Virus genome (UHGV): UHGV-1757948
Strand: one strand, 5' to 3'
DNA length: 20,276 bases
From: a virus
The stretch's first letter is position 1; each line of letters opens with the position of its first letter. Position numbers and translations under genes: made by a program. Below the pieces are notes generated by a model that was not told the DNA's origin, ran no database searches, and saw only the letters and a list, made by a program, of their open reading frames with translations. Positions 3,801-19,675 of the stretch are shown here, one piece after another.

Positions 3801-3908
3801 ATGACATTGACAACATTGAACTTTTCCAAGACCGGAGGCTTGTGGCATGCGGAATGGACACATGGCGGTGAGGGAATATTACAGATAGACGGTGAGCCGG
3901 AACAGTAA
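3801..3908 (+). CDS. Small hypothetical protein (35 aa)
   Basis: ATG at 3801 preceded by a strong Shine-Dalgarno-like CAGGAGGA with about 8-nt spacing; ends TAA 3906-3908; sits between tail genes. Too short for the ORF track. Sequence MTLTTLNFSKTGGLWHAEWTHGGEGILQIDGEPEQ. Confidence 0.25.
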   Translation: MTLTTLNFSKTGGLWHAEWTHGGEGILQIDGEPEQ

Positions 3909-3924
3909 AGAAAGGAGACAGACC

Positions 3925-4578
3925 ATGAGACGTATAAGAATAGGAAACGACATCATTCTGCGCATAAGGCTTACACGCCGTGGCGGTGCAGAGAACCTCG
4001 AGGGAAAGAAAATAGGTCTTATGCTGCGCAACATTCTCGGCAGTGTGAGCCTTCTTGTAGTACAGTCAGGAGGGGAGCTGATAGCAGGATGGCAGGGCAC
4101 ACAGCAGCAGTGGACAGGTGCGTATACAGTGACACTCACAGAGGATTGGGGCGAGAACAACCGCAACACCGTGGATGAGGCATGCGCCTTCGAGCTTGTG
4201 TCAATAAGCAGCGACGAGGGTGTGGAGACCGGCACCGTGAACATCGAGCTTGACATGGACATCAGCGTGCCGGGCAACGGTCTGTCCGCCTATGAGATAG
4301 CCGTGCTGCACGGCTTTGAGGGCACAGAAGAAGAATGGCTGGAGAGTTTAAAGCCCGACACGAGTAATTTTGTGACAACCGAACAAGTAGCGGAAGACTA
4401 TCAGCCAAAGGGAGATTATGTTACAGAAGCACCTAAGGATGGGAAAAACTATGTACGGAAAGATGGAAGCTGGACTGAGTTTGCAGGAAGTGGAAAAGCT
4501 AATGCCTTTTTTTCGAATAATATCCTTAAATTTGAGAGCGGAGGAGCACAATTTAACAACAACATATTAATAATTTGA
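3925..4578 (+). CDS. Tail fibre protein with a conserved central motif and a phage-fibre-repeat C-terminus
   Basis: ATG at 3925 preceded by AAAGGAG. Contains LSAYEIAVLHGFEGTEEEWLESLK, a motif I recognise from phage tail fibre proteins, followed by an EDYQPKGDYVTEAPKDG repeat. Composition shifts from GC-rich to AT-rich at the motif. Confidence 0.7.
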   Translation: MRRIRIGNDIILRIRLTRRGGAENLEGKKIGLMLRNILGSVSLLVVQSGGELIAGWQGTQQQWTGAYTVTLTEDWGENNRNTVDEACAFELVSISSDEGVETGTVNIELDMDISVPGNGLSAYEIAVLHGFEGTEEEWLESLKPDTSNFVTTEQVAEDYQPKGDYVTEAPKDGKNYVRKDGSWTEFAGSGKANAFFSNNILKFESGGAQFNNNILII

Positions 4579-4580
4579 TT

Positions 4581-5315
4581 ATGTCAGAAAAAATTAGCCA
4601 AATTCAGATTAACGCCGACGTCAGAGATATAGAAGACGCGCAGGCATTACACAAAGGTGATAGTTTAGGCACAATAAATGGACAGTCTTTTAATGAAGGT
4701 AATGACTTAAACATTGAAGTTGGTACCAATGATTACAATGCCCTTAAAAACAAGCCACAAATAAACGGACATGAGTTGTCTGGGAATAAATCAGCAAAAG
4801 ATTTAGGCTTACAAGAAGCAGGTGACTATGTAACTCCCGAAGATATACCCGATGTGAGCGAACTGGCAACAAAGACAGAATTGGCAGAAGGACTGGAAGG
4901 CAAGCAGCCAAAGGGTGATTATGCCACAAAGGCAGAAATACCAGATGTGAGTGGATTTATTACCTCTTCACAAGCGGAAGAAAAATATCAGCCGAAAGGA
5001 ACTTATGTCACCACGACTGAACTATCTAAAAAGGCAGATAAAATCGCAACCGAAAATGTAGCCGAAACTACAAAGGAATTGCAACCGAACAAGTATTACA
5101 TATTTGGCGAAGTTGCCACACTTACCATAACTCTTGCAGCAGGAGAAGAAAATGTCCTTGCTGAATACATGTTTGAGTTTACAAGCGGCACAACTCCAAC
5201 AATATTGTCACTGCCCGAGGACGTTAAATGGATAGGTGAAAGCACGATTGAGGCAAGCAAGACATATCAAGTGAGCATCGTCAATAATATAGCAGTCATG
5301 GGAGGTGCAGCATGA
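4581..5315 (+). CDS. Tail fibre / receptor-binding protein with repeated Q-P-K-G-(D/T)-Y units
   Basis: ATG at 4581 (track start is TTG at 4575). Repeats GKQPKGDYATKAEIPDVSG and EKYQPKGTYVTTTELSKKADK, and a KPQINGHELSGNKSAKDLGLQ motif typical of phage fibre proteins. AT-rich. Stop overlaps the next start (ATGA at 5312-5315). Confidence 0.7.
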   Translation: MSEKISQIQINADVRDIEDAQALHKGDSLGTINGQSFNEGNDLNIEVGTNDYNALKNKPQINGHELSGNKSAKDLGLQEAGDYVTPEDIPDVSELATKTELAEGLEGKQPKGDYATKAEIPDVSGFITSSQAEEKYQPKGTYVTTTELSKKADKIATENVAETTKELQPNKYYIFGEVATLTITLAAGEENVLAEYMFEFTSGTTPTILSLPEDVKWIGESTIEASKTYQVSIVNNIAVMGGAA

Positions 5316-9354: not shown

Positions 9355-10410
9355 ATGAAATGTGAGCAGCTAACATTCGCAAGGGAATACAGGGGATTTA
9401 CGCAAACCGCACTCGCGGCAAAAGTCAAAGGGCTATCGCAATCCAACCTGTCAAAATATGAAAAGGGGTTTGGCGGGCTGTCAGACAACATGCTTAGTTT
9501 GATTATGTCCACGCTTGATTTTCCGATGAAATTCCTTGACATGAATATTGTGAACAAGGTTGACAGCAAGCATTACAGGAAAAAGGCAACCATAACCGTA
9601 AAGACACGCAACGAGATAGACAGGACAATATCCCTGATTGCGTATTGTTTTGATTGGCTTAGTGAATTTGTCGAGATACCTGACTATTCATTTGGATACT
9701 ACGACATGGACAACGGCATAAGCCCGGAGGAACTTGCCGGGCACATAAGGAACAAATACAGGCTCGGCATGTCGCCTATATCCGATATTTGCAATTTCCT
9801 TGAGCGCAATGGGGTATTCATTTACATGTGGGACAGTCCTAACGACGAGTTTGACGGGGTATCCCTGATAACTGACGCAGGCAATCATCTTATCATTGTG
9901 AACAGGAACAGAAGCAACGACAGGGTAAGGTTTACGCTTGCACATGAGCTGGGACACATACTGATGCACGAGTGCCCAAGTTTCCCGGTATTCAGCATTA
10001 GAGACAAGGAGAAAGAGGCGAACGCTTTTGCATCAGAGTTCCTTCTCCCCTCCCAGGCTGTCAGAAACGCCTTGCACAATGTCAGGCTCGGACAGTTCCC
10101 TGAGCTGAAACGGTATTGGCTTGTTTCCATGGCATCACTTTTGGAAAAGGCAAAAAACATAAACGCCATTGCAAGTGAGAAGTACAAGTCTATGAGAATG
10201 GAGTTCAGCAGACGCCATTGGAATAAGAAAGAACCTTACGAAGTGCCTATTGACAGCCCTACCGTCTTTGAGCAGGCATATAGGCTGGTATCGGACACAT
10301 TGGGGTATTCAATCAGCATGATTTCGGAAAGCACAGGCTTGCCCGAGGATGTCTTGATAAAGATATTCGGCAAATCTGCGAGGATAATATCATTAAAGCC
10401 ACTAATATAA
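9355..10410 (+). CDS. XRE-family HTH domain fused to an ImmA/IrrE (M78) zinc metallopeptidase domain
   Basis: N-terminal HTH (FTQTALAAKVKGLSQSNLSKYEKG) and central HEXXH motif within FTLAHELGHILMHE, typical of COG2856/Peptidase_M78; 351 aa. Confidence 0.85.
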   Translation: MKCEQLTFAREYRGFTQTALAAKVKGLSQSNLSKYEKGFGGLSDNMLSLIMSTLDFPMKFLDMNIVNKVDSKHYRKKATITVKTRNEIDRTISLIAYCFDWLSEFVEIPDYSFGYYDMDNGISPEELAGHIRNKYRLGMSPISDICNFLERNGVFIYMWDSPNDEFDGVSLITDAGNHLIIVNRNRSNDRVRFTLAHELGHILMHECPSFPVFSIRDKEKEANAFASEFLLPSQAVRNALHNVRLGQFPELKRYWLVSMASLLEKAKNINAIASEKYKSMRMEFSRRHWNKKEPYEVPIDSPTVFEQAYRLVSDTLGYSISMISESTGLPEDVLIKIFGKSARIISLKPLI

Positions 10411-10492: not shown

Positions 10493-11002
10493 ATGGGAAG
10501 ATTTAAAGGATTGCTTGTGGTAGTATCGGTGTTGTTGACCGCATCATTATGCGTCAACATACTCCAGTGCAGTAATGCCGGAAAGAAAACAACGAATCAG
10601 GACACAGTACGGACTACATATATAGACACCATTCCGTTCTTGAATCCTGTACCCAAAGACAGTACGGTGATACGGTATGTTACGGAGACGTTGCCCGTGA
10701 CTTGCCGCAAAGACACGATATACGAAGAGAAGGGCGGGAATACAGGCGACAGCGTCAAGGTGACACTGCCTATAACTTCCAAAGTCTATAAGGACAGTAC
10801 CTATACCGCATACGTGAGCGGATTCCGCGCGAATCTTGACAGTATATTTGTATATCCGAGACACGAGACTGTAACTGTCACAAGGTACAAGGAAAGTCCG
10901 CGCCTTGGCGTCGGTATTGCCGCAGGTTACGGTATAGGGAAAGACATGAAACCGACACCTTTCATAGGAATATCCGTATATTATAGGCTTTGGCAGTGGT
11001 AG
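10493..11002 (+). CDS. Secreted or membrane-anchored hypothetical protein (169 aa)
   Basis: N-terminal hydrophobic signal-like segment LLVVVSVLLTASLCVNILQC and an aromatic C-terminus (YYRLWQW). Preferred over the Arg/Cys-rich antisense ORF 10547-11137. Confidence 0.45.
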   Translation: MGRFKGLLVVVSVLLTASLCVNILQCSNAGKKTTNQDTVRTTYIDTIPFLNPVPKDSTVIRYVTETLPVTCRKDTIYEEKGGNTGDSVKVTLPITSKVYKDSTYTAYVSGFRANLDSIFVYPRHETVTVTRYKESPRLGVGIAAGYGIGKDMKPTPFIGISVYYRLWQW

Positions 11003-11208: not shown

Positions 11209-11599
11209 CAGATTCCTCCTTTTCTGAGTTTATAGATACGAACAATCTCTCGTAGTCATCACAACTGATTTCAAAGCAGTTCTGACTTATTACTCCGTCA
11301 GAATCCCCGAAAACGTAAAACGGGGTATACGGACTGTATGTCTTCAGGACACCCACATCCTTTTTGTTGTCCTGCCTGTGTCTGATATAGAACCAGTAAT
11401 GAGGTCTTTTGTAACCGACACACCATAGCAGCATAAGGACAAACAACAAGAAGAAAAAACAGAAAAACCATTTCGGCAGGAAAACGTCAATCAGAAAGAA
11501 TGTAACCCATGCCGTTACCATTACGGCGAAAGCCTCAAAAGATGTCTTGTAATCAAAATTTTTCATTTTCATAATATGTTTAATATTTCTTATTCCCAT
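11189..11599 (-). CDS. Small membrane protein with two TM segments
   Basis: Hydrophobic stretches FAVMVTAWVTFFLIDVFL and FFCFFFLLFVLMLLWCVGY. Start may be a downstream ATG (about 11572 or 11566), which would remove the overlap with the upstream gene. Confidence 0.45.
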   Translation of the reverse strand: MGIRNIKHIMKMKNFDYKTSFEAFAVMVTAWVTFFLIDVFLPKWFFCFFFLLFVLMLLWCVGYKRPHYWFYIRHRQDNKKDVGVLKTYSPYTPFYVFGDSDGVISQNCFEISCDDYERLFVSINSEKEESDDTDAK

Positions 11600-12134
11600 G
11601 CTTAAATGGGCGGAGTCTGTTATAGCGCATCTTCTGCTCGACGTAGAAGTCGATGTCGATATCGTTTTGGTGGCAGAATAAGATAATGAGGGCTACAGTG
11701 AGATTGATTTTTTCGCAAAGGGCTTCCTTATATAAACAAAGTCCCTCACAAAGATGGTACATGACGACGGGGAATGGCTCATTAATGAATTTTGCGTCTG
11801 AAGCAAGAAACTCGTCAACGTAATGCAGGGATATTCCGCGCAGTGCAGCCAAGTCCAAACAGCGTATGATGATGTCGCTAAGTTCATCCTCAACCGAGTT
11901 TTTGACGTGTGTCTCAAATTCATACTTAAATACAACGTCGTCATCGGCGTATGTTCCAAGTAATGCTTTGAAAAGGTCAATGTCCGTGTGCCTGTCCTTG
12001 CGGTCTGCCTGTACAGCTTCAGATATCTCAGTAATGATAAGCATCAAATAAGTTTCGTCAGGCAGTTCTTCATCGTGCCATCCGTGCGTCTTTGCGGTCT
12101 CAAAAACTGCTTTTGATAATTTAGTCAAATCCAT
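11580..12134 (-). CDS. MazG-like nucleoside triphosphate pyrophosphohydrolase (all-alpha NTP-PPase)
   Basis: Motifs LMLIITEISEAVQADRKD and EDELSDIIIRCLDLAALRGISL (metal-binding E-x-x-E/D helices) and C-terminal KMRYNRLRPFKHGNKKY, characteristic of phage MazG-like proteins. Confidence 0.65.
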   Translation of the reverse strand: MDLTKLSKAVFETAKTHGWHDEELPDETYLMLIITEISEAVQADRKDRHTDIDLFKALLGTYADDDVVFKYEFETHVKNSVEDELSDIIIRCLDLAALRGISLHYVDEFLASDAKFINEPFPVVMYHLCEGLCLYKEALCEKINLTVALIILFCHQNDIDIDFYVEQKMRYNRLRPFKHGNKKY

Positions 12135-13903: not shown

Positions 13904-14068
13904 TTATCTTGTGATTTTAGAGGAAATTTTCCTTGTATTTCCTTTGTTTTCCTTTGCCAAACACTCATTGCCACATCTTCTGCCCACGTCGTACTTATCG
14001 CACCATCCGTCTCCGTAGAAGCCTTCGTTAATGAAGTGGATACATGAGCCGCAGTGTCTTGCTTTCAT
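13904..14068 (-). CDS. Cys-rich micro-protein (54 aa), translationally coupled downstream of the PP-loop ATPase
   Basis: Hand translation MKARHCGSCIHFINEGFYGDGWCDKYDVGRRCGNECLAKENKGNTRKISSKITR; ATG overlaps the upstream TGA (ATGA at 14065-14068). Not in the ORF track (under 60 aa). Confidence 0.35.
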   Translation of the reverse strand: MKARHCGSCIHFINEGFYGDGWCDKYDVGRRCGNECLAKENKGNTRKISSKITR

Positions 14069-14982
14069 TTTTCGTCGTCTTTAAATTCAAATTTCTGTTG
14101 CAGGAACTCGTCAGCGTAGAACTGCTTGTAGCTCTTGTCGCTTATCCACCACCTAAAGCCTGTTTCAGCGTCGTTGAAATTGTGGTCGATATATCCGTTG
14201 TCTATCAGCCATTGGATTGTCTTTATCCAATTGCGTTTGACGTGCGGCCAGCGTTTAGCATCTTCCTTCTTTATCCGTGCGTTCGACATAGGGCAACAGA
14301 TGCAGCCAATGCGTGTATAACCCTCGTCGTAGAGTTCGCAGTGTGGTATGCCGTTCATGTTAAGGAACTCCCACACGTCGCGCTCCGTCCAATAGATTAT
14401 GGGCGATACAAGGATTTTGTCCTTACCGCCGACACACGCAACCATGCTCTCCTCATGTTCGCTCCATTGGTCAAAGGTTTCCTCATTGCGCTTGCCCTTT
14501 ATCTCTGTGGATATTTCCTCACGTTTTGCACGCCGTGCGCTTTCTTCTTTTCTCACACCGATAAGTGTCACCTTGCCAACGCCTGACGTTTCCTTGAACT
14601 CGGCACAACACCAACGCAAAGTCCTTGTCGGCAAGATGTGCTTTTTCTTCGCCATTTCGTAAATGCTCATCCGTGGTTTGATTAGCTCCACATCGGGGTA
14701 TTGCGTCTTGACGAAGCGGATGACTTCGGGCGGGTCTATGCTCGTAAGGTTCATGTGAGCCTTGAAGCGGACACCGGCCAGCTTTGCGACATGGTAGAGG
14801 CATTGGCTGTCCTTGCCGCCACTGAACGCAAGGTAAAAGCCGTTTTCGGGGTCGAGGCGCAACGCCATTTTCTCCGACTTCCGCAAAAGTTCGACGGAGT
14901 GTTCCAGCTTCCTTGCAAGCGGACGGCTTACCTTTGACATTACGGTGTCGTGGTCAAGCAGTATTATTTCACACGCTTTCAT
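14065..14982 (-). CDS. PP-loop ATP pyrophosphatase of the PAPS-reductase / DndC-like family
   Basis: PP-loop motif in LAFSGGKDSQCLYHV plus Cys clusters (WCCAEF, GCICCPMS) compatible with Fe-S or zinc binding; 305 aa. Confidence 0.8.
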   Translation of the reverse strand: MKACEIILLDHDTVMSKVSRPLARKLEHSVELLRKSEKMALRLDPENGFYLAFSGGKDSQCLYHVAKLAGVRFKAHMNLTSIDPPEVIRFVKTQYPDVELIKPRMSIYEMAKKKHILPTRTLRWCCAEFKETSGVGKVTLIGVRKEESARRAKREEISTEIKGKRNEETFDQWSEHEESMVACVGGKDKILVSPIIYWTERDVWEFLNMNGIPHCELYDEGYTRIGCICCPMSNARIKKEDAKRWPHVKRNWIKTIQWLIDNGYIDHNFNDAETGFRWWISDKSYKQFYADEFLQQKFEFKDDEK

Positions 14983-15107
14983 TTTGCCTTGTCTTTAAGT
15001 TTGAATATAAATTCCATCAGTTGTTTGTTCTGCTGGCGGTACCTGTCAACCTCGGCTTGCAGGAAGTCAATCTCGTTGTGGTACGCCTCACGCTCAAAGT
15101 CAGTCAT
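14979..15107 (-). CDS. Micro-protein (42 aa, helical-looking) coupled to the PP-loop ATPase
   Basis: Hand translation MTDFEREAYHNEIDFLQAEVDRYRQQNKQLMEFIFKLKDKAK; its TGA overlaps the ATG of the 14065-14982 gene (ATGA). Confidence 0.3.
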   Translation of the reverse strand: MTDFEREAYHNEIDFLQAEVDRYRQQNKQLMEFIFKLKDKAK

Positions 15108-15113
15108 CGTTCA

Positions 15114-15260
15114 CTAATCGTCTACAATGGCTTTTGCTAAACCGAAGAGAAGGATATATATTCCTAACATGAGCAGTACCCATGGGAAACTTGTCAACAT
15201 CCATATAGAGGCTGCCACGCAAAGTGCACCGGCATGGATGATTAGTTCAGTTCTGTTCAT
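15114..15260 (-). CDS. Micro-membrane protein (48 aa) coupled to the radical-SAM gene
   Basis: Hand translation MNRTELIIHAGALCVAASIWMLTSFPWVLLMLGIYILLFGLAKAIVDD; ATG overlaps the radical-SAM stop (ATGA at 15257-15260). Confidence 0.35.
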   Translation of the reverse strand: MNRTELIIHAGALCVAASIWMLTSFPWVLLMLGIYILLFGLAKAIVDD

Positions 15261-16162
15261 TGCTTCATATTTTTAAGTTTGTAACTATTCTCATTAAGCC
15301 ACTTTTGGAAATACCATAACTGACCGCATCCGCCACCTATATCGTCTTGCCCTGCCGGGTTAAATACTCTCGTATTAAAACCTACGTCATTCATCTTTGA
15401 ATTAAAGTCACGGATTAAGTCAAGTTGTCGCTGTATTGATGAATGTACACTTTCATCCTTTTCGCAAATAACAGACAAAGTGACCTCCCATATATCAGGG
15501 TTAAATAATTCAGAGAGCCTCATAGCATCTTCCATATCATTATTCCCGACATGTACGCAATAATTAAAGAAAGGCTTTCTTCCGACATAAGAAGCCCAAA
15601 ACTCACCCGTAGAAGCTATTTGCCGAAGTGTTGACGTATTCGTTGCTATAAGTTTCTTCCTTTTTTCATCTGTACTTTCATGTACTGAAAATTGAAGACC
15701 TACTTTATCTATTTCTTTCGATAGTGCAATAAAATCAGACATGTATAAATACATCATGTGAGGGGCAGAAGTGCTTACAAGAAGTTGTGCGTTTGGATAT
15801 TTCACATGTAGACTTTCTATTGCAGGCTGCAATGCCGAGTAGTTGTAAAAAGGCTCTCCCATGCTCATAAACATAATTTGGAACTTTTTAATGTCATCAG
15901 TGCGGCAATCAATAGTAGATAATGCCCCATCAATCTGTTGTATTATTTCGTCAGTAGAAAGATTTCTGACAAAAAATTTGCCTGTTCCGCAGAAAGAACA
16001 TCCAACTGGACAACCGCTTTGAACCGAACAACATATAACTGTCCTTTTTTTGTATTCTCCATATCTATAAAGAACAGTTTCAGCAATAGCATTTGGCTTG
16101 TCCCACTCAAACACGAATTTCTTTACATTCGTATCACTTGATTCAAATACTTTTGTTTTCAT
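15257..16162 (-). CDS. RlmN/Cfr-family radical-SAM methyl synthase, N-terminally truncated
   Basis: VICCSVQSGCPVGCSFCGTG holds the CxxxCxxC radical-SAM cluster plus the upstream RlmN Cys118-equivalent; MFMSMGEPFYN matches the MGMGEP motif; LLVSTSA matches the STSG region; C-terminal GQDDIGGGCGQL matches the Cys355 region (DIDAACGQL) of E. coli RlmN. 301 aa, about 70 residues shorter at the N-terminus than RlmN; markedly AT-rich relative to neighbours. Confidence 0.85.
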   Translation of the reverse strand: MKTKVFESSDTNVKKFVFEWDKPNAIAETVLYRYGEYKKRTVICCSVQSGCPVGCSFCGTGKFFVRNLSTDEIIQQIDGALSTIDCRTDDIKKFQIMFMSMGEPFYNYSALQPAIESLHVKYPNAQLLVSTSAPHMMYLYMSDFIALSKEIDKVGLQFSVHESTDEKRKKLIATNTSTLRQIASTGEFWASYVGRKPFFNYCVHVGNNDMEDAMRLSELFNPDIWEVTLSVICEKDESVHSSIQRQLDLIRDFNSKMNDVGFNTRVFNPAGQDDIGGGCGQLWYFQKWLNENSYKLKNMKQ

Positions 16163-18958: not shown

Positions 18959-19675
18959 TCAGTCCTCCCTCACTTCTATAGGCTCACCGTCAACTAACTT
19001 ATACCAAGTGTCGGACTTTATTGTCTCTCCGTCTACCTTGAATGCCTTGACATCCTTTATAGGATACGTTTCTCCGTTCCAACTGTCACGTTCCGTAAGG
19101 ACTATCCAGCAGCCGAGAGCACCTTTCGCCTTGCTGCCCTTGCCTGTCACTATGGCAACAGAATCCTTACCATCAACACTTGCGGCGGAGCAGTCGCCCG
19201 TGTTGGTGGCGGCTGACCTGTAGCCCGTGTTGGTAGCAGCGGAGCAGTCGCCCGTGTTGGTGGCGGCGGAGCAGTTGCCCGTGTTGGTGGCGGCTGACCA
19301 GTCGCCCGTGTTCGATTGTTTATTATCATCCCATTTTACATGGTCCATGATGAACTTGACTCCTGCTTTAATCAGTCCCTGTAAGCCTATTTCGGCTTTG
19401 ATTTTCAAATGGGTACAACATATTTTATCAGGTTTAGACTTGTCAAAATCACCGCTGCCTTCAACTTCACAAAACCTGTTCGGTGTTCCCGTTTCGTCGC
19501 ACGGAGCGTAAAAGCCCAGCACATCCATAGGGCATTCGCAATAATGGAAACCGGTATTGCAGGCGACCGCCTTGTCTGTTGAATACTCCTTGCCGACTTC
19601 GTACTGGAAGCCGCGGCACTTCAGGTCTTTGTCAAAACCTTTATAGCCATGAATCGTTTCTGTCTCTTTTTTCAT
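18959..19675 (-). CDS. Hypothetical Cys-rich protein containing five tandem 9-aa repeats (SAATNTGxx)
   Basis: 238-aa ORF. The N-terminal domain carries many Cys and His (CRGF, CNTGFHYCECP, CDETG, CCTH). Central run WSAATNTGNCSAATNTGDCSAATNTGYRSAATNTGDCSAA is encoded by 27-bp tandem repeats. Confidence 0.6.
   Translation of the reverse strand: MKKETETIHGYKGFDKDLKCRGFQYEVGKEYSTDKAVACNTGFHYCECPMDVLGFYAPCDETGTPNRFCEVEGSGDFDKSKPDKICCTHLKIKAEIGLQGLIKAGVKFIMDHVKWDDNKQSNTGDWSAATNTGNCSAATNTGDCSAATNTGYRSAATNTGDCSAASVDGKDSVAIVTGKGSKAKGALGCWIVLTERDSWNGETYPIKDVKAFKVDGETIKSDTWYKLVDGEPIEVRED
19183..19317 (-). repeat. Five tandem copies of a 27-bp unit inside the 18959-19675 gene
   Basis: Anchor CCCGTGTTGGT (plus strand) recurs at 19197, 19224, 19251, 19278 and 19305, exactly 27 bp apart, with small substitutions between copies; in frame. 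Confidence 0.85.

Follow-up and report, generated by a model that had tools for sequence, protein, structure and literature searches.

A phage protein with the PAPS-reductase fold and an ATP-type PP-loop, a candidate counter-defence enzyme in place of a sulfonucleotide reductase

Introduction

What does a phage do with a protein that has the fold of a phosphoadenosine phosphosulfate (PAPS) reductase? Few viral auxiliary metabolic genes (AMGs) are reported as often as the phage genes named PAPS reductase or cysH, and in 2026 phage PAPS reductases were still cited to argue that gut and bee phages aid the sulfur metabolism of their hosts (PMC13369170; bioRxiv 10.64898/2026.02.18.706556). The question is raised here by the virus genome UHGV-1757948, a complete metagenomic contig of 20,276 bp listed in ENA as ERZ1310104 NODE_1063 and referred to as the window, which carries a gene for a protein with a PP-loop and two clusters of cysteines. 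A first-pass annotation described this product as a PP-loop ATPase similar to PAPS reductase and DndC, and suggested that the adjacent radical S-adenosylmethionine (SAM) gene may define its substrate chemistry. From the comparison of the protein, its cysteines and its gene neighbours across the family, we propose, with a rough probability of 0.5, that it is an ATP-dependent, iron-sulfur (Fe-S)-bearing and nucleic-acid-directed counter-defence enzyme; chemistry related to DNA phosphorothioate (PT), or interference with the PT systems of the host (Dnd, Ssp and BREX type 4), is the leading specific candidate.

Family placement and the ATP-binding loop

The motifs on which the initial description was based, i.e., the PP-loop SGGKDS and the cysteine clusters WCCAEF and GCICCPMS, are real, and the three of them were verified codon by codon in the open reading frame (ORF) at 14065..14982 (Table 1). 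The protein has the adenine-nucleotide alpha-hydrolase fold of the PAPS-reductase type; Pfam PAPS_reduct (PF01507) matches residues 51-231 with 79.8 bits versus a threshold of 22.5, and in PHROGs the protein belongs to phrog_424, named 'phosphoadenosine phosphosulfate reductase' (E=4e-39, 135.9 bits), where it aligns with profile positions 134-363 of 460 and lacks the first ~130 positions of the profile. The family is large: 4640 homologues pass E<=1e-5, and a library clustered at 50% identity yields 3749 cluster representatives at E<=1e-3. Given these thousands of homologues and the invariance of the motif residues described below, the pattern formed by the PP-loop and the cysteines lies far beyond chance. 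In the longer homologues Pfam found PAPS_reduct only, together with one N-terminal helix-turn-helix (HTH) domain (P0216). With this gene, a known phage family that is widespread and functionally unassigned gains a new member, in agreement with the earlier remark that phage copies are often annotated and remain uncharacterised (phrog_424; PMC13369170; bioRxiv 10.64898/2026.02.18.706556; PMC11437467).

None of the named NCBIfam models came near its curated cut-off. For CysH, TIGR00434, TIGR02057 and NF002537 gave 49.7 versus 165.1, 41.4 versus 254.2 and 49.4 versus 154 bits, respectively, and the matches cover just the C-terminal half; the adenosine phosphosulfate (APS) reductase model TIGR02055 gave 45.9 versus 235.3 bits, and the NCBIfam model of CysD 41 versus 195 bits. 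The best NCBIfam matches were uncharacterised archaeal models of the PRK13795 type. The term 'DndC-like' holds at the level of the superfamily and fails at the level of the family, where TIGR03183 gave 15.1 versus 290.4 bits (E=0.008) and the DndC models of PADLOC no match at E<=0.01. The top match in PADLOC was BrxP, with 57 bits and residues 48-269 aligned on positions 134-352 of 779; this alignment is restricted to the PAPS domain, whereas BrxP (779 residues) has extra domains that include DUF4007. SspD was marginal (E=0.008). Of the other profiles put forward at the outset, no family-level sequence match was obtained with TtcA, and the same holds for TtuA and NcsA; likewise, neither a QueC match nor genes for FolE, QueD, QueE or DpdA were found, and the 7-deazaguanine assignment was discarded.

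The intact sequence SGGKDS is the ATP-binding PP-loop of adenylating enzymes. Those members of the PAPS-reductase clade that use ATP move AMP to an oxyanion, which is sulfate for CysD and phosphate for FAD synthase; on the other hand, the sulfonucleotide reductases have a degenerate loop and require a C-terminal cysteine. In the alignments, SGGKDS falls on 'NGGKDC' of FAD synthase, on 'SIGKDS' of CysD and on the degenerate 'SSFGIQ' of E. coli CysH, while the CxxC motif of the family falls on the cysteine-free 'VGDTH' of this last protein. E. coli CysH (1SUR) shares the fold and the blocks 'DPPE/FPET', 'GxRxxxSxxR' and 'PIxxWT..VW.....Y..LYDxGY' with the phage protein; nevertheless, it has SSFGIQ in place of SGGKDS, it lacks the Fe-S cysteines, and it ends in a catalytic ECGLH tail that is absent in the phage protein. 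Motifs were counted in 270 homologues, of which 217 carry all three. The sequence CG[LIV]H was found in none of the 270, the PP-loop protein has no cysteine after residue 230, and 145 of the 217 three-motif homologues are devoid of any cysteine beyond CxxC. Because the full ATP-type SGGKDS is kept and the C-terminal catalytic cysteine is absent, the protein is, on sequence grounds, not a sulfonucleotide reductase; it is predicted to be a stand-alone, single-domain PP-loop ATP pyrophosphatase with the PAPS-reductase fold.

Conserved cysteines and structural model

An alignment of 60 diverse homologues, which are 33-55% identical to the query, revealed a set of invariant residues that includes the complete PP-loop (S54, G55, G56, K57, D58 and S59), P118, C125, C126, K130, E131, G142, R144, S148, R151, P194, Y218, R224, G226, C227 and C230. 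C229, a third cysteine in 'GCICC', varies among these homologues. Of the homologues that carry both motifs, 212 have the CC pair 71 residues past the PP-loop. The conservation expected of Fe-S ligands is hence present in four cysteines, and these had been described as 'extra'; that word does not fit, since only four are conserved and the CxxC motif aligns with known ligands of a [4Fe-4S] cluster. In a profile search of the PDB, the family sequence 'RvGCilCP' aligned with 'IGCepCT' of the Pseudomonas aeruginosa APS reductase 2goy, whose Cys228 and Cys231 are cluster ligands, and also with 'IGCAPCT' of the Mycobacterium tuberculosis protein 7lhr; the cluster-ligand motif of the APS reductases, SxGCxxCT, is matched by RIGCICCP of the query.

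The tandem cysteines of the APS reductases are part of the motif CCxxRKxxPL. When CCxxLKE of the query was compared with 'ECCGIRKIEP' of 2goy, HMMER, hhalign and a global pairwise alignment all left the CC pairs unsuperposed, and the residue-level equivalence of the invariant C125/C126 to Cys139/140 of APS reductase is ambiguous for this reason; the pair may fall several residues later in the phage protein. C125 and C126 would form a tandem-cysteine site analogous to the pair of APS reductase. DndC likewise has a PP-loop of the SGGKDS type and an Fe-S centre (the latter according to PMC10853773). An Fe-S cluster is predicted because four invariant cysteines are present in a cytoplasmic enzyme of the PAPS-reductase clade, as is the case in APS reductase and DndC, with C125, C126, C227 and C230 as the most likely ligands of a [4Fe-4S] cluster similar in kind to that of these two enzymes. 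The APS reductases (2GOY, 7LHR) differ from the phage protein in that they have the catalytic cysteine of ECG[LI]H, and the loop of the phage protein is the canonical ATP-type SGGKDS.

The AF2 model of the protein has a predicted local distance difference test score (pLDDT) of 89.3 and a predicted template modelling score (pTM) of 0.86, and it is weaker only at the loop formed by residues ~160-188, the region around which the match of the longer homologues to the query also breaks. In this model the SGGKDS sequence (residues 54-59) follows strand 49-52, and C125/C126 are placed at the N-terminus of helix 124-131, ahead of strand 138-140. The N-terminal helices 11-43 and the C-terminal helical extension 235-294, which are extra with respect to APS reductase, are not covered by the solved relatives, whose template modelling (TM) scores to the query are ~0.45-0.5. 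No structures of DndC, SspD or BrxP were among the structural matches.

Gene neighbourhood across the family

For the study of the neighbourhood, 107 loci were gathered and dereplicated to 73 at 85% identity of the PP-loop protein; the Pfam scan comprised 248 same-strand ORFs located within 1.5 kb of the gene in 72 loci, and the distance from the gene was used as an internal control for neighbour density. There is no universal neighbour among the 73 loci, and the commonest BLAST cluster, an N6_N4 DNA methyltransferase, was found in 10 of them. DNA methyltransferase and radical-SAM genes are enriched more than 10-fold directly beside the PP-loop gene. At distances of 0-0.5, 0.5-1.5, 1.5-3 and 3-5 kb, the density of DNA methyltransferases was 1.13, 0.69, 0.22 and 0.09 per 10 kb, that of radical-SAM-type genes 0.98, 0.30, 0.055 and 0.09, and that of all ORFs of at least 100 residues 19.2, 12.5, 11.9 and 9.5. 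A DNA methyltransferase is present within 1.5 kb in 15 of the 73 loci, in every case on the same strand, and a radical-SAM-type gene in 11, including seven in which it is found within 500 bp.

The Pfam counts for the 248 ORFs were eight for N6_N4_Mtase, seven for the C5 DNA_methylase, five for Radical_SAM and three for VRR_NUC; proteins of replication and recombination (DnaB, SSB, DnaA-like, IstB, RusA and HNH) were also found, and no ParB, cysteine desulfurase or DndD/E-like protein was detected among them. In NatCom_17901 there are DNA methyltransferases on both sides of the PP-loop gene, the second gene downstream of it in the Methanosarcina virus MetMV encodes a DNA methylase, and its neighbours in a 61.9-kb element of B. 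thetaiotaomicron include a cytosine methyltransferase and an ASCH gene. Placement among methyltransferases in variable early regions is a trait that the gene shares with the phage family phrog_424. In one locus (L016:6974-8272) the PP-loop gene is followed by a gene for a 432-residue AAA_22 (ORC/Cdc6-like) ATPase; this arrangement, which is rare among the loci, recalls by analogy the pairing of a PAPS-domain protein with an NTPase in Ssp and BREX type 4.

The radical-SAM gene of the window encodes a protein similar to RlmN and Cfr. It aligns with RlmN 6fz6 over 'CCSVQSGCPVGCSFCGTG' and 'GGGCGQ', it keeps CxxxCxxC and both mechanistic cysteines ('CCSVQSGCPVGCSFC', 'GGGCGQL'), including the C-terminal one of CGQ, and it is devoid of roughly the first 70-110 residues of RlmN/Cfr; the RlmN model TIGR00048 (5.9e-28) and the Cfr models matched under their cut-offs. 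This protein would be a phage C-methylating radical-SAM enzyme, with rRNA, tRNA or DNA as candidate targets. The suggestion that it defines the chemistry of its neighbour did not survive as a specific pair, which was ruled out by synteny in both directions. An RlmN/Cfr-like gene is located beside the PP-loop gene in one of the 73 dereplicated loci, that of its own phage lineage, and the same result was obtained among the first 20 loci; in the reverse test, three of the 38 viral loci of the RlmN/Cfr-like gene, many of them in phage genomes of 90-355 kb, have a PP-loop homologue within 5 kb. In L002, a 92%-identical relative, a different insert of 2.1 kb is found at the position of the radical-SAM gene.

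In a weaker, general form the suggestion stands, as several radical-SAM families cluster beside the PP-loop family. These are unrelated to one another and comprise the RlmN/Cfr-like type of the window, an unnamed cluster (six loci), PA0069/Rv2578c (SplB-like), 'mobile pair A'/DUF5131, a B12-binding type and others; the proximity is more readily explained by a nucleic-acid-modification island in which such genes reside together. Examples of radical-SAM genes are those at L018:6565-7665, L047:5675-6511, L068:5787-6629, L099:3620-5011 and L009:4470-5423, and the unnamed cluster carries the sequence 'TRGCPNKCKWC'. No report of an association between PP-loop and radical-SAM genes in phages was found in the literature searched.

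Proposed function and alternatives

From the intact ATP loop and the four invariant cysteines, we infer a step of adenylyl transfer beside an Fe-S site. ATP would bind at the PP-loop and AMP would be passed to an oxyanion of the substrate, by analogy with its nearest relatives in structure, CysD, FAD synthase and, as has been proposed, DndC; the adjacent Fe-S site might keep the activated group, or it might deliver sulfur supplied by a cysteine desulfurase of the host. The target would most likely be the nucleic acid of the phage, and if so the role of the enzyme would be that of counter-defence. Related proteins are known from this context. In Vibrio crassostreae phages, a transferred two-gene locus, formed by a PAPS-domain::Dam fusion and a gene of unknown function, brings about escape from Dnd (bioRxiv 10.1101/2021.05.05.442762; Piel et al. 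2022), its PAPS domain being fused to a methyltransferase, unlike the protein of the window; PAPS-reductase genes are also present in anti-defence operons regulated by Aca (PMC13551039). DndC, SspD and BrxP are likewise tied to DNA modification and to the conflict between phage and host. BrxP and BrxC of BREX type 4 make PT in Bacteroides, Parabacteroides and Prevotella, and PT systems, this one in particular, are enriched in gut Bacteroidales (PMC12914056); the genera concerned are the host genera of this phage family.

Several observations weigh against this proposal. The synthesis of PT, as far as it is known, requires a dedicated NTPase (DndD, SspC or BrxC) in addition to the PAPS-domain protein, and in a Bacteroides strain with a PAPS-reductase gene beside an ATPase and no adjacent dndD, PT was undetectable (PMC12914056), a finding that speaks against a phage protein able to make PT on its own. 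The DndA/D/E, SspB/C or BrxC neighbours that accompany DndC, SspD and BrxP are missing beside the phage gene: no PT-type NTPase, cysteine desulfurase or DndE was found in the window or among the 248 close neighbours, and no DndD/DndE/DndA operon in the window, on the longer related contig L151 or among these neighbours. In addition, no DNA-binding domain can be recognised in the PP-loop protein, the solved structures nearest to it are those of proteins that act on small molecules, and the sequence position of its CC pair is ambiguous relative to APS reductase. In around 50 of the 73 loci, methyltransferase and radical-SAM genes are both absent within 1.5 kb, and the association is thus no more than a tendency. 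Finally, the phage PAPS-reductase family (phrog_424) is biochemically uncharacterised; a Thermus phage paper of 2024 stated that such proteins 'deserve further investigation' (PMC11437467).

A bolder proposal, which we hold to be doubtful even when its two versions are taken together, is that the phage enzyme is a self-sufficient or host-hijacking DNA sulfur or adenylyl transferase. In one version, it would place a PT or other sulfur mark on phage DNA without an NTPase of the DndD/SspC/BrxC type of its own, e.g., by borrowing BrxC or SspC and the cysteine desulfurase of the host, and in this way Bacteroidales phages would evade BREX type 4, Ssp or Dnd. In the other, the enzyme and its variable radical-SAM neighbours, here the N-terminally truncated RlmN/Cfr-like protein, would build a DNA hypermodification that has not been described.

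Other activities have to be weighed against a nucleic-acid-directed counter-defence enzyme. One could suppose that AMP is transferred from ATP to a soluble oxyanion or nucleotide, and that the protein, without modifying DNA, alters a pool of nucleotides, cofactors or signalling molecules in the infected cell; nevertheless, CysD and FAD synthase align no cysteine at the CxxC position of the family, the relatives that bear Fe-S act on sulfonucleotides or nucleic acids, and such a small-molecule adenylyltransferase, which we find a doubtful prospect, would leave unexplained both the steep enrichment of DNA methyltransferases and the anti-Dnd phenotype of the phage locus with a PAPS domain. Of the two enzymes, CysD makes APS and depends on the GTPase CysN, and the eukaryotic FAD synthase makes FAD and has its PAPS domain in fusion with a molybdopterin-binding-like domain. 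Modification of RNA seems unlikely; a tRNA or rRNA thiolase with Fe-S, similar to TtcA, TtuA or NcsA, could retune host translation, perhaps together with the RlmN/Cfr-like methylase, but the similarity to thiolases is much below that to the PAPS-reductase clade, no TtcA/TtuA family matches extend beyond the PP-loop, the RlmN-like gene is not a conserved neighbour, and the neighbouring methyltransferases are of DNA type (N6_N4 and C5). The database name 'phosphoadenosine phosphosulfate reductase' implies instead a sulfur AMG, i.e., a phage CysH or APS reductase that boosts assimilatory sulfate reduction in the host; the fold matches, CxxC is typical of APS reductases, and there are papers that treat such phage genes as AMGs (PMC13369170; bioRxiv 10.64898/2026.02.18.706556), although these report no enzymatic test. 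This role is quite improbable, given that ECGLH or a conserved C-terminal cysteine is present in none of the 270 homologues, that the intact ATP-type SGGKDS stands where CysH has SSFGIQ, that the scores are 49.7 versus 165 bits for CysH and 45.9 versus 235 for APS reductase, and that the gene resides in a module of replication and DNA methylation, away from metabolic genes.

It could also be argued that the PP-loop/Fe-S enzyme and the adjacent radical-SAM enzyme install one complex modification in a common pathway. Radical-SAM-type genes within 1.5 kb (11 of 73 loci) or 500 bp (seven), with a density that falls from 0.98 to <0.1 per 10 kb past 1.5 kb, speak for this, as do the four loci in which both genes abut or overlap and the use of SAM in DndC-dependent PT formation, as claimed in an in vitro report cited in PMC10853773. 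The pathway is nonetheless distinctly unlikely: the radical-SAM families differ, which fits better with a shared 'modification island', 62 of the 73 loci are without a nearby radical-SAM gene, the radical-SAM family of the window is without a PP-loop gene in 35 of its 38 loci, and DNA methyltransferases are equally enriched by position without being mechanistic partners. Very improbable, in turn, is a regulatory or non-catalytic role such as that proposed for the IbrA/YbdN proteins ('co-activator of prophage gene expression'). YbdN is a detectable relative, with an hhalign probability of 97%, and one homologue (P0216) has the N-terminal HTH domain mentioned above; however, the alignment with YbdN spans only 86 columns, and YbdN has no CxxC, has DUF3440 and has a ParB-like partner, none of these traits being present here, while the invariant residues of catalytic type (the PP-loop, the four cysteines, K130, R144 and R151) point to an active enzyme. 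An assignment to IbrA/YbdN was rejected, as the alignment is distant, partial and without CxxC, DUF3440 gave no match and ParB is absent among the neighbours. IbrA/YbdN and the CasCysH of type IV-B CRISPR also have the PAPS-reductase fold, are linked to mobile elements, lack the reductase cysteine and are of unknown chemistry; unlike the phage protein, IbrA/YbdN combine PAPS_reduct with DUF3440 and are paired with the ParB-like IbrB/YbdM.

The locus and its phage

The coordinates of the features mentioned in this work are collected in Table 1. ATGA overlaps at both ends, with the ORFs at 14979..15107 and 13904..14068, make the PP-loop gene part of a tightly packed minus-strand operon, in which the gap between the radical-SAM and PP-loop genes (14979..15260) is occupied by two small ORFs. 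The operon further contains the MazG-like pyrophosphatase, YopX, the RlmN/Cfr-like gene and, at the contig end, the truncated C5 DNA methyltransferase, while the plus strand carries tail-fibre-like genes, an amidase lysin and the HTH+Peptidase_M78 regulator. The phage origin assumed at the outset is well founded, given the amidase lysin, HTH+Peptidase_M78, YopX and MazG-like genes and an IMG/VR viral contig that carries a 100% identical locus. The full-length counterpart of this methyltransferase, a PF00145 gene for 359 residues, was located at 3900-4979 of the longer contig L151, where it has the corresponding position in the operon, ~5 kb upstream of that contig's PP-loop gene.

Table 1. Features of the window, with positions, strand and remarks
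Feature	Position	Strand	Remarks
PP-loop / PAPS-reductase-fold gene	14065..14982	minus	305 aa; phage family phrog_424
PP-loop SGGKDS, residues 54-59	14806..14823	minus	read from sequence; predicted ATP pyrophosphate-binding loop
Tandem C125-C126 (WCCAEF; family motif RxCCxxLKE)	14605..14610	minus	predicted metal/Fe-S ligands
C227-I-C229-C230 (GCICCPMS; family motif RxGCxxCP)	14293..14304	minus	C227 and C230 predicted Fe-S ligands
54-aa Cys-rich ORF downstream (C6, C9, C23, C32, C36; 'CGSC...C...C...C')	13904..14068	minus	ATG overlaps stop codon of PP-loop gene
42-aa ORF, charged/coiled-coil-like, upstream of PP-loop gene	14979..15107	minus	ATGA overlap; called gene on database contigs
48-aa ORF, hydrophobic/membrane-like	15114..15260	minus	ATGA overlap; called gene on database contigs
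RlmN/Cfr-like radical-SAM gene, 301 aa, two small ORFs upstream of PP-loop gene	15257..16162	minus	
238-aa protein (DUF7666 on database contigs)	18959..19675	minus	tandem repeat SAATNTGx, ~5 copies ('NTGDWSAATNTGNCSAATNTGDCSAATNTGYRSAATNTGDCSAAS')
C5 DNA cytosine methyltransferase, C-terminal fragment cut by contig end	19959..20261	minus	same operon
MazG-like nucleotide pyrophosphatase	11580..12134	minus	phrog_9236, 2.5e-47
HTH_3 + Peptidase_M78 (ImmA/IrrE-like) regulator	9355..10410	plus	
DUF6808 protein, next after HTH_3 + Peptidase_M78 regulator	10493..11002	plus	

Among the first 20 related loci, 10 (nine besides L001) have the MazG-like gene downstream of their PP-loop gene, with 38-67% identity. 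The 54-residue Cys-rich ORF may encode a small protein that binds zinc or iron; it was rejected as a conserved partner, since L001 and L002, the two closest relatives, are the only loci that have it, and an apparent '54-aa cluster' at other loci proved to be an ORF inside the PP-loop gene. The HTH_3 + Peptidase_M78 and DUF6808 genes are situated at the convergent junction where the late and lysis genes of the plus strand meet the end of the minus-strand operon, and a regulator at this position suggests a temperate lifestyle.

Close relatives were found in assemblies of Bacteroides, Parabacteroides, Prevotella and Paludibacteraceae. In the phage collection, the best result of a nucleotide search was one match of 123 bp with 71.5% identity, which indicates that the collection has no close sequenced isolate. 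A PP-loop copy with 74% identity is encoded on NZ_CP103284.1, the 61.9-kb circular 'plasmid unnamed1' of B. thetaiotaomicron BFG-119. The record is typed as a non-mobilizable plasmid. Its genes include those for terminase and DNA packaging as well as YopX and VRR-NUC, and the element has the appearance of a phage or phage-plasmid that exists outside the chromosome of this cultured strain.

Significance

The intact ATP loop, the four-cysteine site and the absence of the catalytic cysteine in all 270 homologues argue that the family is unable to perform the CysH reaction, and the usual label of 'cysH AMG' is contradicted by these sequence features. The presence of the 74%-identical copy in a cultured B. 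thetaiotaomicron makes the question open to experiment. PT defences (BREX type 4, Ssp and Dnd) are common in gut Bacteroidales, and the family is for this reason a candidate for a widespread counter-defence. If it is true that the family belongs to a toolkit of DNA modification and anti-restriction, many inferences on viral sulfur cycling would need to be revisited.

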